A stretch of DNA of 32,000 nucleotides from Clostridia bacterium (lineage in GTDB: Bacteria > Bacillota > Clostridia > TANB77 > RGIG9151): the NCBI GenBank assembly GCA_017934955.1, contig JAGBIO010000008.1:1-32000 (forward strand), written 5' to 3'. Positions 3,891 through 30,704 of this stretch are shown here, one piece after another. Numbering within the stretch: the first letter of the stretch is position 1; each line of letters begins with the position of its first letter. The position numbers were made by a program, and so were the translations under genes. The notes under the pieces are model-generated. The model ran no database searches and was not told the origin of the DNA. It saw nothing but the letters and a program-made list of their open reading frames with translations.

Positions 3891-4006
3891 ATAAAATGAA
3901 CATTATCTGCGATACATTTGACAAAAATTGATTGTAATGCCTAATGTATCGCAGTAATCAGAATGGTGAGGGAAATAACGAAAATTACTTTTATCCAATC
4001 AATCAT

Positions 4007-4129
4007 TTTACAGAAGACTTCTATGATGATGCTACAAACGTTGTAGGGACAGCATTTATGCTGTCCACAGAAAAGGCAGAATTTAATAGTCCGATTCTTA
4101 ACTTAAGGACATTGAGTCTGATCTGTAAC
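4007..4129 (+). mobile_element. Decayed MITE copy
   Basis: The left end is TTTACAGAAG (first base G to T) at 4007. An intact left palindrome TGTAGGG-GGACAGCAT-TT-ATGCTGTCC spans 4042-4066. The family spacer ACAGAAAAGGCAGAATT spans 4067-4083. The second hairpin has eroded (AATAGTCCG). The right TIR TCTGATCTGTAAC ends at 4129. There is no clear TSD. Confidence 0.6.
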
Positions 4130-6649: not shown

Positions 6650-6803
6650 GTTACAAGTAATACTATATCTCCTATAATACCGGTACACCCATTGTACGGA
6701 CAGCATTCATGCTGTCCTGCCTTTTTGATTTTTCCATGGACAGCATAAATGCTGTCCCTACACTATTTGTGCCATTTTTATAATTTTAAGTCTGAACTAT
6801 AAC
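6650..6803 (+). mobile_element. 154-bp MITE with a palindrome-doublet core
   Basis: The left TIR is GTTACAAGTAATAC (6650-). The right TIR is the reverse complement of ..TCTGAACTATAAC (ending 6803), which reads GTTATAGTTCAGA. The core doublet spans 6693-6762: TGTACGG-GGACAGCAT-TC-ATGCTGTCC, a 20-nt spacer, then GGACAGCAT-AA-ATGCTGTCC-CTACA. Its length equals that of the 17293-17446 copy. The flanks gACGAtGg and aACGAgGt look like a decayed TSD. Confidence 0.85.
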
Positions 6804-6810
6804 AACGAGG

Positions 6811-7209
6811 TTATATTTGATTTTTAACATACGCTTCGATTCTATTCACAAATTTAACGGCATTATCACATTGTTCTATCGCTTCTTGCCTTGAAATACG
6901 ATAAAAATCAGAATAATCACTTTGAATTTTCACAGAAAAAGCCTCCTTCGCCATTTTCGCATATTCCAATCCAATCAATCCCGTTTTAATATAATCCGAA
7001 TTAAAATTTACAAAAGCACAAGAGTGTTTCTTAAAACCAATCCCTCTTAACGCCAAAAGTACATTCATCGAATGAAATATGGCATAATACGCACAATTAA
7101 CACTATCTGTATAAACTTCACCATCCAACAACAGCTTTGCTGCATTAAGAGAATCTCTTGCTTTTTCAAGCTTATACTTTCCACACGTAATTTCCTCTTG
7201 ATTAGGCAC
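6811..7209 (-). CDS. HEPN-domain protein (putative toxin of an MNT/HEPN type VII TA pair)
   Basis: The helical HEPN-like sequence has an Rx6H motif (LRGIGFKKHS) and SDYSDFY. I place the start at GTG 7209, with AGGGAG 9 nt upstream. This gives an 8-nt overlap (GTGCCTAA) with the MNT gene stop. The ORF-track start at 7272 would overlap the MNT gene by 71 nt; ATG 7251 is another option. Confidence 0.8.
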   Translation of the reverse strand: MPNQEEITCGKYKLEKARDSLNAAKLLLDGEVYTDSVNCAYYAIFHSMNVLLALRGIGFKKHSCAFVNFNSDYIKTGLIGLEYAKMAKEAFSVKIQSDYSDFYRISRQEAIEQCDNAVKFVNRIEAYVKNQI

Positions 7210-7543
7210 ACAAATCCACTCCCTCTGCTTCAATATTCTTAAATAACGCATAAGTAGCCTTATATCTTTCATAAGTAGCCTTATCCTGAATCAAAAGAGA
7301 TAAAACAACACCATATTTCAAATCAATCTCTACTGAAAAATCCGAAAACTTCTTTATTTGTTTCTTAACTTCATCACTCGTTATATCCGCAATAATCATA
7401 ACATCTATATCAGATTCTTTATCATAGTCACCTCGTGCATAAGAACCATATAAAATAACCGAATTCAGTAAATCCCCCAATTCACTCTTAGCATATCTTA
7501 AAACATCTTCCAATATCATTCGTAACGTATCTTCCTTACACAT
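7202..7543 (-). CDS. Minimal nucleotidyltransferase (MNT) domain protein (putative antitoxin)
   Basis: 113 aa with the polymerase-beta-type signature GSYARGDYDKESDIDVMII. SD GGAGG lies 7 nt upstream of the ATG. It sits immediately upstream of, and overlaps, the HEPN gene. Confidence 0.9.
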   Translation of the reverse strand: MCKEDTLRMILEDVLRYAKSELGDLLNSVILYGSYARGDYDKESDIDVMIIADITSDEVKKQIKKFSDFSVEIDLKYGVVLSLLIQDKATYERYKATYALFKNIEAEGVDLCA

Positions 7544-9870: not shown

Positions 9871-9920
9871 AATTAGACCCTCCAAAAGACTTACTTCGCA
9901 AGAAATAATAAAGAATATTG

Positions 9921-9997
9921 AAAAAAGAATAAATAATAAATTTTGTTGTTTTTCGGTAAACCGAAAAACTTCATTATTTCTTCTTTATTATTTATTC
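9921..9997 (-). terminator. Long AT-rich compound hairpin terminator between the kinase-family gene and guaA
   Basis: The inner stem is GTTTTTCGG-TAAA-CCGAAAAAC (9948-9969). The outer stem is GAATAAATAATAAA (9927-9940) paired with TTTATTATTTATTC (9984-9997). On the minus strand the structure is followed by TTTTTT. Confidence 0.7.
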
Positions 9998-10020
9998 TCT
10001 ATTCTTTATTCTCTCATTTC

Positions 10021-13509: not shown

Positions 13510-13537
13510 TGTAAGGAACAACATCCTCGACGTCCCG
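13510..13537 (+). repeat. Degenerate copy of the GC-rich repeat (REP-B)
   Basis: TGTAAGGAACAACATCCTCGACGTCCCG compared with the consensus TGTAGGGGACGGCGTCCTCGACGTCCCG. The 3' half is intact and the 5' half has mutated. It ends 4 nt from the spoIIIAA stop codon. Confidence 0.6.
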
Positions 13538-13541
13538 CACA

Positions 13542-14423
13542 CTAATTTTCTTTTCTTTTTTCAACACATTCAAACCCCTCCTGCTTTAAAACAATAATCC
13601 TCTCAAACACTCCCATCCCAATCAACTCTTTCAATCGCGTGCTTCGGTTCAAATCCTCCAACGATCCGCCATGTGCTGTCGCTAAAATCTTCACACCGGA
13701 ATTTACAGCATATAAAATTGCCTCTGCATCTTCATCCGTTCCTATCTCATCCGTCGCAATAAAATCCGGTCGCATTGATCGCACCATCATTCGAATTCCC
13801 TCCGATTTCGAGACCGAATCCATCACGTCGGTCCGTAATCCGACATCATTTTGTGCCTCTCCCCGATATACCGCCGCAATCTCAGAACGCTCATCTACCA
13901 ACGAAACATCATACCCTGCATTGCTAATCCGCCGCACCAAATCCCGCAAAATTGTTGTTTTTCCCAATCCCGGAGGAGCTACCAACAAAGTACTCAAAAA
14001 CTCGCCATTCTTTATAACAGAAGGAATGAGTTTATCCGCCGCGCCAATTACCTGCCTTGCGATACGGAAATTCAATCCTGAAACATCGCGAATATTATAC
14101 AACCGATTTTCTTTATATAACGCCTTTCCCACAATTCCAATCCGATGCCCACCAAATACCGTCACAAAGCCATTTACAATATCTTCCTGAAACGCATAAA
14201 TGGAGTTTTCGCATACTGCTGAAAAAATACTTTCCACTTCACTCTTTGCCATTTTCTTTTCCAATACTCTTTCCCCTCGGCTGCTTTTTAATATCACCGG
14301 GCGATTCGTCCGAACACGAATTTCCTGTAAATCGTTTAAAAATGAGTCGCCTACGTTTAAAATATCCTCCCTGACCTCCGATGTAAAAAAACGCAAAAGC
14401 TCCCGATTGATTCTATCTTTCAT
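13542..14423 (-). CDS. spoIIIAA: Stage III sporulation protein AA-like ATPase
   Basis: It has Walker A APPGLGKTT, Walker B-like DFIATDEIG, and SGVKILATAHG. The preferred start is ATG 14423 (MKDRINREL), with GGAG 8 nt upstream. The ORF-track start at 14528 runs into the palindrome array. Confidence 0.85.
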   Translation of the reverse strand: MKDRINRELLRFFTSEVREDILNVGDSFLNDLQEIRVRTNRPVILKSSRGERVLEKKMAKSEVESIFSAVCENSIYAFQEDIVNGFVTVFGGHRIGIVGKALYKENRLYNIRDVSGLNFRIARQVIGAADKLIPSVIKNGEFLSTLLVAPPGLGKTTILRDLVRRISNAGYDVSLVDERSEIAAVYRGEAQNDVGLRTDVMDSVSKSEGIRMMVRSMRPDFIATDEIGTDEDAEAILYAVNSGVKILATAHGGSLEDLNRSTRLKELIGMGVFERIIVLKQEGFECVEKRKEN

Positions 14424-14456
14424 TGGCATAACTCCTTTCTTTTGTATTATATTTGC

Positions 14457-14636
14457 GGACACAATAAATTGTGTCCCTACGTTAATTGTGCCTCTTCCTT
14501 CCGTACGGACAGCATTCATGCTGTCCACACGTTAATTGTGCCTCTATCCTTCTGTACGGACAGCATTCATGCTGTCCACACGTTAATTGTGCTTCTATCC
14601 TTCTGTACGGACAGCATTTATGCTGTCCACTCTACA
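14457..14636 (+). repeat. Tandem array of 3.5 units (50-51-bp period) of palindrome plus constant spacer
   Basis: The hairpins are GGACACAAT-AA-ATTGTGTCC (14457-14476) and GGACAGCAT-TC-ATGCTGTCC (14507-14526 and 14558-14577). A fourth, GGACAGCAT-TT-ATGCTGTCC, lies at 14609-14628. The spacers are near-identical (ACACGTTAATTGTGCCTCTATCCTTCTGTAC). Confidence 0.95.
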
Positions 14637-14660
14637 AAATCCGCCAATTTTCTCCCTCAA

Positions 14661-17270: not shown

Positions 17271-17292
17271 TTCTTGATATCAAACCTTTTTC

Positions 17293-17446
17293 GTTACAGC
17301 TCAAACTATATCGTCCTACAACGATGGTGCAACCATTGTAGGGACAGCATTTATGCTGTCCTGCTTTCTGCTTTTTCTGTGGACAGCATGAATGCTGTCC
17401 CTACAGCGTTTGTGCCTTCTCTATAAATTTGGTTCTGACTTGTAAC
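17293..17446 (+). mobile_element. 154-bp MITE with TIRs and a perfect 8-bp TSD
   Basis: The left TIR is GTTACAGCTCAAAC (17293-). The right TIR reads GTTACAAGTCAGAAC as the reverse complement of the end at 17446. The core doublet at 17337-17405 is TGTAGGG-GGACAGCAT-TT-ATGCTGTCC, a 19-nt spacer, then GGACAGCAT-GA-ATGCTGTCC-CTACA. Direct repeats CCTTTTTC lie at 17285-17292 and 17447-17454. Confidence 0.93.
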
Positions 17447-17475
17447 CCTTTTTCTACAAAAAAGGATCAGAATCA

Positions 17476-17533: not shown

Positions 17534-17776
17534 ATGAAATCAACCGGTATTGTAAGAAAAGTAGATGAATTAGGTCGTGTTGTTCTCCCTATCGAGTTAA
17601 GACGTAATCTCGATATCGAAGAAAAAGATGCTTTGGAAATTTATGTAGATGGAAATTCCGTAATCTTAAAGAAATATGAGCCGGATTGTATCTTCTGCGG
17701 AACAGCAAAAGATGTAACCACCTATAAAGGAAAAAATATTTGTGCAAACTGCATGAATGAATTAAAAAAAGCATGA
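17534..17776 (+). CDS. abrB: AbrB-family transition-state regulator
   Basis: 80 aa. The N-terminus MKSTGIVRKVDELGRVVLPIELRR is the SpoVT/AbrB swapped-hairpin DNA-binding domain. SD AAGGAGG. Confidence 0.93.
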   Translation: MKSTGIVRKVDELGRVVLPIELRRNLDIEEKDALEIYVDGNSVILKKYEPDCIFCGTAKDVTTYKGKNICANCMNELKKA

Positions 17777-17830
17777 AAAGGTACAAAAAAAGTGTTTTGC
17801 GTAGGCAAAACACTTTTTTTGTACCTTTTT
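17776..17830. terminator. Bidirectional intrinsic terminator between convergent abrB and the yycI-like gene
   Basis: A 25-bp stem AAAAGGTACAAAAAAAGTGTTTTGC, loop GTAG, then GCAAAACACTTTTTTTGTACCTTTT. U-tracts are available on both strands. Confidence 0.85.
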
Positions 17831-24253: not shown

Positions 24254-24354
24254 GCGTCCATACACCTACTATCATCTCTTTCCGTACGGACACAATTCAT
24301 TGTGTCCGTACACCTACCATCATCTCCTTCCGTACAGACATATTCATTATATCC
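24254..24354 (+). repeat. Tandem palindrome array (~48-bp period) that reaches the rsmA stop codon
   Basis: A partial unit ..GTCCATACACCTACTATCATCTCTTTCC comes first. It is followed by the perfect 28-bp palindrome GTAC-GGACACAAT-TC-ATTGTGTCC-GTAC (24284-24311). The spacer ACCTACCATCATCTCCTTCC and a decayed hairpin AGACATATTCATTATATCC (24336-24354) complete the array. Confidence 0.85.
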
Positions 24355-25202
24355 TAAGCCCGCTCATACGCATTCGTAATCGCAGCAAAATTTTCCAAAC
24401 TCAAACGTTCCGCTCGGCAATTCAAATCAATCTCCAAATCATCTAATATTTTAGCCAATTTTTCCTTATTGATTCCATGAATTCCCGCACTTCCAAGCGA
24501 ATTCAACAAAGTTTTCCGCTTCATCGCAAAACTTGCCTTCACAATCTCAAAAAACAACTTTTTATCTACCTGCACTCTCGGCTTCTCCAAAATATCCAAT
24601 CGTATTACAGCCGAATCCACCGCCGGTGGCGGTAAAAACGCATTACTCGGAACGGTCTCCATATATCTCGGTTCCGCATAATAATTCACCGCAACCGTAA
24701 TGGCACCGAACTCGCGTCCCGTCGGCTTTGCACAAATCCGATCCGCCACTTCCTTCTGCACCATAATCTCAATCAGTGAAATTCCCGGTTCTTCCTCTAA
24801 AAGTTTCATCAAAATCGGGGTTGTAATATAGTAAGGCAAATTCGCCACTACTTTTACTTTTTTTCCTTCCGCCTTCGCTACAAGCTCTTTTAAGTCAATT
24901 TTCAAAATATCCGCTTCGATAATCTCCAAATTATGAATATAGGAATATTCTTTCTTTAAGATTTCCACCATCTGCTTGTCAATCTCAATTACCGCCACAT
25001 ATCCTGCCTTTTCGCAAAGTCGCTTTGTCAAATTTCCCAACCCCGGTCCGATTTCAATCACAAAATCATTCGGTTCAATCTCCGCATTCGCCACAATATT
25101 CTCCAAAATCGTCTCATCTGTCAGAAAATTCTGACCATACTTCTTCTTCGGAATAATCCCATATTTCTTCATCATCTGTCGATTTTCTTCGTATAAACTC
25201 AT
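24354..25202 (-). CDS. rsmA: 16S rRNA (adenine1518/1519-N6)-dimethyltransferase
   Basis: It has KKYGQNFLTD, the SAM motif VIEIGPGLGNLT, and NLPYYITTPI. The start is ATG 25202 (MSLYEEN), 5 nt after GGGAGG. The ORF-track start at 25256 lies inside a palindrome. Confidence 0.95.
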   Translation of the reverse strand: MSLYEENRQMMKKYGIIPKKKYGQNFLTDETILENIVANAEIEPNDFVIEIGPGLGNLTKRLCEKAGYVAVIEIDKQMVEILKKEYSYIHNLEIIEADILKIDLKELVAKAEGKKVKVVANLPYYITTPILMKLLEEEPGISLIEIMVQKEVADRICAKPTGREFGAITVAVNYYAEPRYMETVPSNAFLPPPAVDSAVIRLDILEKPRVQVDKKLFFEIVKASFAMKRKTLLNSLGSAGIHGINKEKLAKILDDLEIDLNCRAERLSLENFAAITNAYERA

Positions 25203-25242
25203 CTCAGCCTCCCGAAATATCTCGCTTTGCATATCTTTTTTC

Positions 25243-25267
25243 TGTACGGACAGCATTCATGCTGTCC
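25243..25267 (+). repeat. Solo REP-like palindrome
   Basis: TGTACGG-GGACAGCAT-TC-ATGCTGTCC, lying 41 nt upstream of the rsmA start codon. Confidence 0.9.
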
Positions 25268-25297
25268 ATCCTACTAATCGCTTCTTTATAAAGTAAT

Positions 25298-25505
25298 GTT
25301 ACAGGTCAAACTATAATCTTGTATCTTTCAAAAAATATCGTCAGAATGTAGCTTGTAGGGACACAATTCATTGTGTCCTAATCTAATGTCAGGCTATTTC
25401 GCGGACACAATAAATTGTGTCCCTACAACGTTTGTACCGTCATCGTAGGGGACGGCGTCCCTGACATCCCGATATATTTACAACAATTTTACTCTGAACT
25501 GTAAC
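25298..25505 (+). mobile_element. 208-bp MITE (doublet core plus nested GC-rich repeat) with a perfect 8-bp TSD
   Basis: The left TIR is GTTACAGGTCAAACTATAAT (25298-). The right TIR reads GTTACAGTTCAGAGTAAAAT as the reverse complement of the end at 25505. The doublet spans 25354-25427 and the REP-B copy GTAGGGGACGGCGTCCCTGACATCCCG spans 25445-25471. Direct repeats AAAGTAAT lie at 25290-25297 and 25506-25513. Confidence 0.93.
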
Positions 25506-25520
25506 AAAGTAATTCATTAA

Positions 25521-26195
25521 TTATATATCCTCAATCAACTTCGTTTCTCTCACCTTCAAATATCGCTTCGCCCCATACACGCCTTCCACCAAAATATGCG
25601 TCGGTGCAGAAGCCTTATCATGCTGCACAAACTGTAACACCTTCGGTTCAATTTTATAATCCCGCATACAACAAAGAATATCACACAAACGATCCGGTCG
25701 ATGTACCATAAAAAACTTACCAAGCGGCTTCAAGAGTTCTGCACTCACCCGAATAACGTCCTCCAACGAACAATAAATCTCATGCCGTGCAATTGCCTTC
25801 GTATCAGCCTCATTTTGAATTCCGCAACCGTTGGTCCGATACGGCGGATTACAAGTCACCACATCTGCCACCGATTTTCCCAAAGCATCGGAAACTGTCT
25901 TCAAATCTTGATTTAGAATTCTAATTTTATCCTCTAACCGATTCAACTTCACATTTTCCTCCGCCAATTCCGCCACCTTCGGTTGTATTTCCACACCAAG
26001 AATCTCCTCCGCCGGCACTTTTTCCGACAAAAGAATCGGAATCACACCATTTCCGGTACATAAGTCGATAATTTTTGCACCCTTCTTGCAATTCACAAAA
26101 TTCGCCAACATCACCGCATCAATTCCAAAACAAAACATATCGGTATCCTGTATCAATTTCAATCCGTTTAACTCTAAATCATCCAATCTACGCAT
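25521..26195 (-). CDS. tRNA (adenine-N6)-methyltransferase, TrmN6/YfiC-like
   Basis: It has the SAM-binding motif IIDLCTGNGVIP and the catalytic VVTCNPPY. The start is ATG 26195 (MRRLDDLEL), 5 nt after AGGAG. The ORF-track start at 26327 lies in the palindrome array. Confidence 0.85.
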   Translation of the reverse strand: MRRLDDLELNGLKLIQDTDMFCFGIDAVMLANFVNCKKGAKIIDLCTGNGVIPILLSEKVPAEEILGVEIQPKVAELAEENVKLNRLEDKIRILNQDLKTVSDALGKSVADVVTCNPPYRTNGCGIQNEADTKAIARHEIYCSLEDVIRVSAELLKPLGKFFMVHRPDRLCDILCCMRDYKIEPKVLQFVQHDKASAPTHILVEGVYGAKRYLKVRETKLIEDI

Positions 26196-26227
26196 AATTA
26201 CTCCTAAAATTGTTACCATTCCATCAC

Positions 26228-26338
26228 GGACAGCATAAATGCTGTTCCTACAAATATCCTCTTTCTCCGTACGGACAGCATTCATGCTGTCCTTTACAAA
26301 TATCCTCTCACACCGTATGGACGGCATTCATGCTGTCC
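26228..26338 (+). repeat. Tandem array of three palindromes (45-46-bp period)
   Basis: The first hairpin is GGACAGCAT-AA-ATGCTGTTCC (26228-26248, with a 1-nt insertion, followed by TACA). The second is GTAC-GGACAGCAT-TC-ATGCTGTCC (26273-26292). The third is GTAT-GGACGGCAT-TC-ATGCTGTCC (26319-26338). The spacers are similar: TTTACAAATATCCTCT..CC. Confidence 0.93.
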
Positions 26339-26339
26339 T

Positions 26340-26489
26340 TTACTCGTCTTTCTTTATCTCCACTCTCGCCAATAATCCCAAAAGCTTAATCACAATATAT
26401 AAAATTGCCAATACACCAAAAACAGCCGCCATTCCAATCCCCATAATTTGAAAACCCGACCGAAAATTCGCCATCATCTCACTTGACAT
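26340..26489 (-). CDS. OadG-like small membrane subunit (49 aa), absent from the ORF track
   Basis: Hand translation gives MSSEMMANFRSGFQIMGIGMAAVFGVLAILYIVIKLLGLLARVEIKKDE. The G-F-x-I-M-G-x-G-M-x-x-V-F pattern is typical of the OadG N-terminal helix. SD GGAGG lies 7 nt upstream and directly after the beta-subunit stop. Confidence 0.6.
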   Translation of the reverse strand: MSSEMMANFRSGFQIMGIGMAAVFGVLAILYIVIKLLGLLARVEIKKDE

Positions 26490-30676: not shown

Positions 30677-30704
30677 TGTAGGGGACGGCGTCCTCGACGT
30701 CCCG
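30677..30704 (+). repeat. GC-rich repeat (REP-B), consensus copy
   Basis: TGTAGGGGACGGCGTCCTCGACGTCCCG. It has internal complementarity (GGGACG...CGTCCC and GGACG-G-CGTCC). It abuts the accC stop codon (30705-30707) with no gap. Confidence 0.9.

Follow-up and report, generated by a model that had tools for sequence, protein, structure and literature searches.

The 208-bp element at positions 25298-25505 (minus strand, the REP-B side being the left end in the family alignment) of the 32,000-nucleotide stretch of Clostridia DNA analysed here (the window) is, in our judgement, a copy of a non-autonomous DNA transposon (MITE) with a REP core, in which a second hairpin, REP-B, was inherited and which was mobilised in trans; we put the probability of this reading at about 0.78. 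The insertion lies 7 nt past the stop codon of a TrmN6-like gene and 87 nt ahead of the rsmA start, and has duplicated the 8-bp target AAAGTAAT. At the sequence level the element has all the features of a bacterial MITE, short only of an identified partner IS. Its core has the structure that defines a REPIN; terminal inverted repeats (TIRs) and a target duplication take the whole element out of that definition. The family is an undescribed one from an uncultured Firmicute, apparently a spore-former and probably from the gut, and its transposition is cleanly documented by an 8-bp duplication and an exact empty site. The family shows that REP hairpins are able to hitch-hike inside a TIR-bounded element. 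The current understanding of MITEs and REPs is unchanged by these data, and we regard the element as an ordinary if tidy case of bacterial junk-DNA mobility.

Ends, target duplication and copies of the element

The element starts with GTTACAGGTCAAAC at 25298 and ends with ...TCTGAACTGTAAC at 25505. Its TIRs are GTTACAGGTCAAACTA at the end without REP-B (25298-25313, plus strand) and GTTACAGTTCAGAGTA at the REP-B end (25490-25505, read on the minus strand); over 16 nt the two termini match as inverted repeats at 13 of 16 positions, the outermost 7 nt (GTTACAG) perfectly. Immediately outside both termini stands the octamer AAAGTAAT, with the left copy at 25290-25297 and an identical right copy, read from the sequence, at 25506-25513. 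A preliminary description of this DNA had given the positions of the element, of this perfect target-site duplication, of REP-B and of the TrmN6-like stop codon, and every one of them is correct. Within the window, identical 8-mers surround an interval of 100-229 bp at a frequency of 6.6e-5, which is the chance of the 8/8 match seen here, and matches of 7/8 or better do so at a frequency of 1e-3; the 14-nt terminus occurs three times at two or fewer mismatches, against 0.10 expected. Because of these frequencies and counts, a chance origin of the ends and the flanking repeats is excluded. The 208 bp contain no ORF of 60 aa or more. As single-stranded DNA the whole element folds end to end (dG = -38.4 kcal/mol, z = -6.4).

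The family has at least eight copies in ~46 kb, made up of the window and two stretches of the same strain that flank it (L067 and L077, both 100% identical to the window in the overlap). Besides the 208-bp copy, the window holds 154-bp siblings at 17293-17446 (plus strand, perfect CCTTTTTC on both sides, 8/8, spanning 17285-17454 with the duplication) and at 6650-6803 (plus strand, duplication decayed), a 178-bp sibling at 2701-2878 (c2701; plus strand, one terminus degenerate) with REP-B at 2723-2748 on the minus strand, and a partial or decayed sibling at 4006-4129 (plus strand) that has one REP-A and one good terminus. The flanking stretches add L067:14098-14196 (99 bp, internally deleted, flanked by GAAAAAAT and GAAAAAAG, 7/8), L067:17238-17386 (149 bp) and L077:1362-1516 (155 bp, TGTTATTA on both sides, 8/8). 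Across the eight copies the duplication is 8/8 in three, 7/8 in one and decayed in the other four. The target 8-mers are A/T-rich and differ in sequence from copy to copy, which is the pattern of a target-site duplication and not of a part of the repeat. The termini are conserved, with TIRs of ~16 nt that end in (G/C)TTAC, and the gene contexts are unrelated (tandem, divergent and convergent). Pairwise identity between copies is only 65-80%; the family is therefore not a recent burst. The identification as a MITE made in the preliminary description stands on these properties, namely a small, non-coding unit with TIRs, a fixed-length 8-bp duplication and dispersed copies, and is further supported by relatives, one of which has an exact empty site for the sibling at 17293 and three lineages of which have a TrmN6-rsmA spacer without the element.

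The relative with the empty site (L075/L076, DUF4914 protein 93% identical) is syntenic with the window over ~13.5-28 kb. At the 17293 locus L075 reads AACCTTTTCTACAAAA where the window reads CCTTTTTC, the 154-bp element and CCTTTTTCTACAAAAAA; over the Band7-MazE interval it reads ...TTAACCTTTTCTACAAAAC... where the window reads ...AAACCTTTTTC, the 154-bp element and CCTTTTTCTACAAAAAAG.... With its single target copy (CCTTTTC), L075 has an exact empty site here. The TrmN6-rsmA spacer measures 318 bp in the window, 24 bp in L075/L076, 21 bp in L004 and 78 bp in the closest lineage (L002/L073/L074, 95.7% DUF4914 identity), where it contains a REP-A singlet only. The 208-bp element is missing from this spacer in all three related lineages, whose spacers are too diverged to show a single AAAGTAAT; its predicted empty-site junction is GCTTCTTTATAAAGTAATTCATTAATTATATATCC on the plus strand.

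In the parts retrieved, same-species contigs of three samples match the window at 100% identity, so the element is not an assembly artefact; an identical TrmN6-like ORF is encoded by four contigs. None of the available same-species assemblies, all of them identical, has an empty AAAGTAAT site or shows a presence/absence polymorphism of the 25298-25505 copy, whose recent mobility is therefore no more than a possibility. A metagenome search with RsmA returned only relatives at 38-45% identity. In the ~46 kb of this genome that were reached (the window, L067 and L077), there is neither a cognate autonomous IS with matching termini nor a gene encoding a transposase. BLAST of the element against plasmid and phage collections gave no match, nor did two pattern scans of viral contigs. 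IS families that duplicate 8 bp include IS6, IS256, ISL3, IS1595 and IS66; the termini found no convincing match among the 8-bp-duplicating families. A pattern scan of genome contigs across many phyla, which was swamped by GTAGGGACA...TGTCC hairpins with a chance GTTACA upstream, found the end-to-end MITE architecture of the window at 0 of 56 loci.

REP-A doublet and REP-B hairpin

Inside the TIRs the element has short subterminal regions and a core built from two REP-A units. Unit 1 (25355-25378, plus strand) consists of a GTAG head and the 20-nt hairpin GGACACAATTCATTGTGTCC; a 24-nt spacer (25379-25402) separates it from unit 2 (25403-25426, minus strand), which is inverted and reads GGACACAATAAATTGTGTCC followed by CTAC. 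Together the units form a REPIN-like doublet (25355-25426), an inverted REP pair with a spacer and a hairpin fold. In the copies that keep two GTAG-headed hairpins the two arms have identical or near-identical stem variants (GCAT/ATGC or CAAT/ATTG), and matching arms are what is expected of a doublet that behaves as a single hairpin unit (PMC3116915). REP-A is also found outside the family: of 23 REP-A hairpins in the 32-kb window only nine lie inside TIR-bounded elements, and the 14 that lack any TIR occur as singlets, as doublets and in an array with a 51-bp period at 14446-14648. One stand-alone singlet (25244-25267, plus strand) lies in the TrmN6-rsmA spacer itself, outside the MITE. In the closest related lineage the same three spacers contain REP-A singlets and no MITE, and more distant relatives have neither; since the singlets occur there without the MITE, REP-A spreads independently of it. 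To judge from these sequences, REPs have been at the TrmN6-rsmA locus for at least as long as the MITE. No RAYT motif was found in the ~46 kb of this genome that were reached.

REP-B lies between CCCTACAACGTTTGTACC (25421-25438) and the right terminus, and reads GTAGGGGACGGCGTCCCTGACATCCC(G) at 25445-25470(71) on the plus strand, with 2-3 changes relative to the family consensus GTAGGGGACGGCGTCCTCGACGTCCC. It has the GTAG head and GC-rich palindrome of a GTAG-tagged REP and is repeated extragenically. Stand-alone copies at 30678-30703 (plus strand, no MITE around it) and at ~13511-13536 (decayed) support the earlier view of REP-B as a separable repeat. A local nesting into the 25298-25505 copy is not supported, as c2701 and L067:14098-14196 have the same hairpin at the matching position. 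The hairpin body (~21 nt, GGACGGCGTC[C/T]TCGACGTCCC) is present in these three of the eight copies, each time in the same column and orientation, between ...ATGACGG..TTGTAG(G/A) and GATATA in the oriented alignments, in which the family is asymmetric. The flanks of the three carriers are unrelated, and the L067 copy has its own 7/8 duplication. The three are also mutually closest, with 45-49 of 52 columns shared among them, against 43-44 shared by L067:17238 and 35-41 by the 154-bp class. The shared place and orientation, the different flanks and this mutual closeness put REP-B in a common progenitor before transposition to the present locus. On these alignments REP-B is shown to be an inherited subfamily module, which the MITE carried to the locus, and not a secondary hit. 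An arrangement in which the REP-B copies are paraphyletic, implying a loss in L067:17238, was considered and dropped, as the pairwise counts cluster the REP-B trio.

Copies without the hairpin keep a GTAG/ATAG-type head at the point where it starts in the others, namely GTAGGAC-GATA in 17293, ATAGGA-GATA in 6650, GTAGAG-AATA in L067:17238 and GTAGAAGAA-GATA in L077. As the head is common to all copies, the two forms differ by the bare hairpin body 3' of it. The preliminary description had looked to an alignment of the copies for the point at which REP-B entered and for short duplications around it; the point maps to the shared GTAG/ATAG head, and no short duplication was found around it. It had also named a history that would overturn its own, with the 154-bp form as a deletion derivative and no insertion signature at REP-B. 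No such signature was found, and a deletion derivative is equally possible. Compared on eight copies only, three scenarios fit: (a) the ancestor already had REP-B, and a later deletion of the palindrome produced the 154-bp form as a derivative; (b) the hairpin was gained once beside a pre-existing GTAG; or (c) a RAYT-type enzyme adds and removes the hairpin recurrently. GTAG is the guide and recognition tetranucleotide for RAYT-type enzymes (PMC8266576). Around the stand-alone REP-B sites the spacers of relatives are too short or too diverged to tell whether those hairpins lie 3' of a pre-existing GTAG.

The 208-bp copy is 54 bp longer than the 154-bp copies. REP-B was first thought to make up most of this difference, and it accounts for only ~21-26 bp of it; the remainder is a 13-nt insertion private to the 208-bp copy (TTTACAACAATTT, 25477-25489, columns 17-29 of alignments A1 and A2), together with ~12-16 nt located in the other half and 5 nt within the spacer. 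In the half without REP-B, ATATCGTCAGAATGTAGC at 25340-25358 resembles the outer edge of the element's own mutated REP-B (ATATCGGGATGTCAGGG..., 25470-25445); it may be the remnant of a second, inverted REP-B, or chance.

Mobilisation, rival explanations and known systems

A transposase encoded at another place in the genome, working by cut-and-paste or copy-in and cutting with an 8-bp stagger, would have mobilised the element in trans. Staggered cuts of 8 bp are made by DDE enzymes and not by Y1 enzymes of the IS200/IS605 type. The mobilising transposase is most likely DDE-type, a class read only from the 8-bp duplication. At least three copies descend from a progenitor that already had REP-B, placed directly 3' of the family-wide GTAG head; a gain or loss of the hairpin would fit either RAYT-type (Y1 HUH) activity or the simple deletion of a palindrome. 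A more elaborate version, conceivable though on balance unlikely, makes the element a chimera of two transposition systems, in which a DDE-type MITE shell that duplicates 8 bp ferries a REPIN, with REP-B as an additional hairpin in one subfamily, through a Firmicute genome, and the presence or absence of the REP-B body at the kept GTAG is the footprint of insertion or excision by a RAYT.

A different history for REP-B, in which the 154-bp MITE inserted first and the hairpin then entered the 25298-25505 copy alone, would suit a separate repeat that has stand-alone copies and a family whose 154-bp copies lack the hairpin. We consider it improbable in view of c2701 and L067:14098-14196, where the position and orientation of the hairpin are the same and the flanks different, of the clustering of the trio, of the GTAG/ATAG-type head already present in hairpin-less copies, and of the lack of any duplication or other insertion signature at REP-B. 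The MITE reading itself would fall if the whole 150-210-bp unit were an extended palindrome of the REPIN/BIME type spread by a RAYT, with the 'TIRs' as the base of its hairpin and no DDE transposase involved. The end-to-end fold would be expected of such a unit, as would a core that is a REP doublet whose arms always carry the same hairpin variant (GCAT or CAAT). Further afield, a RAYT-like gene stands beside GTAGGGACA-type REPs in another phylum, and Anabaena variabilis has GTAG REP dimers in longer palindromes with no free 'target' palindromes (PMC3733652). Four of the eight copies, on the other hand, have 8-bp duplications, an exact empty site exists, and fourteen REP-A hairpins without a TIR indicate a REP system that spreads without these ends. 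It is established that HUH/Y1 transposition of the IS200/IS605 type leaves no target duplication, and we give spread of the whole unit by a RAYT little chance of being correct.

The element would probably be co-transcribed with TrmN6-rsmA as a long RNA hairpin, whose effect is modulatory at most. The flanking genes are 21-78 bp apart in relatives and probably co-transcribed, so that a long structured insert in the transcript is the likely consequence; the sense-strand RNA of the TrmN6-rsmA spacer has a predicted fold of -103 kcal/mol (z = -8.5). So stable a fold, situated between co-oriented genes, could also be that of a selected cis-regulatory RNA or DNA element of the operon (an attenuator, an mRNA stabiliser or a protein-binding site), and REPs and MITEs are known to change mRNA stability (PMC3733652, PMC3184786). 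We regard this as very improbable indeed: the element is missing from the locus in all three related lineages, its copies lie in tandem, divergent and convergent gene contexts that are unrelated, it matches no Rfam family, and no promoter-like or terminator-like site is found in it. We infer that it is selfish DNA and not a conserved regulator.

Among the known bacterial MITEs, Chunjie (Geobacter uraniireducens), Nezha (Anabaena/Nostoc), Correia and RUP share with this family a length of 100-235 bp, TIRs and fixed-length direct repeats; intergenic or intra-operon insertion, strong hairpins, size variants and decayed copies without TIRs or direct repeats are likewise common to both (Chen et al. 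2008, as summarised in PMC3184786 and PMC10969869). There is no detectable sequence relationship to any of the four, and in contrast to them the core here consists of paired GTAG-type REP hairpins, which spread alone as well, in an uncultured spore-former-like Firmicute whose ~46 kb reached here contain no partner IS. Chunjie duplicates 9 bp, against 8 bp here. REPINs, which are mobilised by RAYT/TnpAREP, resemble the central 70 bp in their two inverted GTAG-headed REPs with a spacer, their matching arms and their hairpin fold (PMC3116915, PMC8266576), whereas TIRs and an 8-bp target duplication of the whole element are not described for them. Insertion without TIRs or target duplication by a Y1 HUH enzyme, as in a REPIN, is not what the whole element displays.

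The nearest published architecture is that of the A. variabilis GTAG REP dimers in longer palindromes (Di Nocera et al. 2013, PMC3733652). In GTAG-15 the dimers lie, as in our family, within a longer conserved palindromic element that has no REP-free copies; target duplications and an empty site are shown for our family, and neither is mentioned for GTAG-15 in the passage cited. Nor are Firmicutes listed in that survey of GTAG REPs. REP-A and REP-B are members of the GTAG-tagged REP class, which is defined by a 5' GTAG (or GTAC) head and a perfect or near-perfect short palindrome and is, like them, multi-copy and extragenic, present as singlets and doublets, with several families per genome. 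Our contig scan found GTAGGGACA...TGTCC(CTAC) hairpins in Bacteroidota, Chloroflexota, Abditibacteriota, Ignavibacteria, Spirochaetes, Planctomycetota and other phyla, and TnpAREP-like genes are documented in "various phyla" (PMC6006769); the REP type itself is therefore not new.

Gene context and other repeats

The genes around the element lie on the minus strand and encode OAD beta and gamma, the TrmN6-like methyltransferase, RsmA/KsgA and DUF4914. The TrmN6-like tRNA methyltransferase gene occupies 25521-26192 (minus strand), and its stop codon (25521-25523) is 7 nt from the right-hand AAAGTAAT. The rsmA/ksgA gene occupies 24354-25202 (minus strand), with its true start ATGAGTTTATAC at 25202, 87 nt from the left AAAGTAAT. 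The element and its 318-bp spacer thus separate two co-oriented genes. The TrmN6-like protein is called at 268 aa and its homologues have ~223 aa; the real start therefore lies near 26192, the true length is ~223 aa, and the 268-aa ORF results from an upstream extension across REP hairpins. RsmA is called at 300 aa against 282-284 aa. REP hairpins are translated as spurious N-terminal extensions at 26227-26340 and 25203-25256 of the window. Four REP-A units arrayed in tandem at a 50-51-bp period (14446-14648) overlap the 5' end of a 328-aa SpoIIIAA ORF call (13542-14528), the start of which is probably inflated by the REPs; SpoIIIAA of relatives is called at 288 aa. The repeats thus have a practical side, in that they inflate ORF calls (TrmN6 268 versus ~223 aa, rsmA 300 versus 282 aa) and probably disrupt or mislead the assembly of metagenomes.

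Genes for SpoIIIAA and for proteins that have Cu_amine_oxidN1 and SLH domains, and a GC content of ~40%, point to an uncultured spore-former-like Firmicute as host; the sample labels suggest a gut metagenome as the source. REPs and MITEs have expanded together in this lineage, and there are few or none in sister lineages whose proteins are 88-96% identical. A third REP family, REP-C, forms inverted doublets of GTAGGGGCGATTATTAATCGCCC ... GGGCGACTAATAGTCGCCCCTAC at L067:11019-11082 and L067:19050-19114; together with REP-A and REP-B this brings the GTAG-headed REP families of the genome to at least three. Two JGI contigs of the closest lineage (L002:3672-3760 and L003:3672-3804) are near-identical, with two mismatches, up to the REP-A 3' of the TrmN6-like gene. 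Beyond that REP-A they diverge completely, one running into rsmA and the other into a different gene, through either recombination or an assembly breakpoint at the REP.

The MITE copy at 6650 adjoins a HEPN gene that overlaps a 113-aa ORF annotated as a nucleotidyltransferase in L067 (window 6811-7543), and the copy at 17293 adjoins a gene for a MazE-like antitoxin (17534-17776); that two copies lie beside small genes of toxin-antitoxin type is probably a coincidence. A perfect 28-nt inverted repeat pair, GTGTTTTGCCTACGCAAAACACTTTTTT, occurs at 336-363 and 17786-17813 of the window, 17.4 kb apart, and looks like one terminator-like hairpin reused 3' of two unrelated genes. A long AT-rich palindrome at 9902-10015, with two 56-nt arms that are 79% complementary and 2 nt apart, lies between the GMP synthase gene and a PRK-family gene and has no relation to the REP and MITE families.

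The GTAGGGACA-N10-TGTCC(CTAC) hairpins of other hosts (loci L005-L060) form full palindromes or inverted doublets, for example at L052:3110-3240, L010:7265-7400 and L055:2700-2970, and their hosts also include Bacteroidales/Prevotella and Pontibacter MAGs. The class has a fixed head and outer stem and an inner stem in which the changes compensate one another. In a Muribaculaceae MAG (L052) the stem GGACACAAT..ATTGTGTCC is identical to that of the present Firmicute and the loop alone differs. A Bacteroidales MAG (L055) has on the minus strand, at ~2100-2690, a 196-aa ORF with NHIH...WQ...YILTNP motifs. Its sole family hit is to the NCBIfam 'REP-associated tyrosine transposase' (E = 4e-13, below the cut-off), with a weak hit to TnpAREP (PDB 4ER8) and none in Pfam; both hits, though weak, are specific. 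The ORF directly abuts a cluster of five GTAGGGACA-type REPs (2700-2970), and by its sequence the locus looks like a REPtron.
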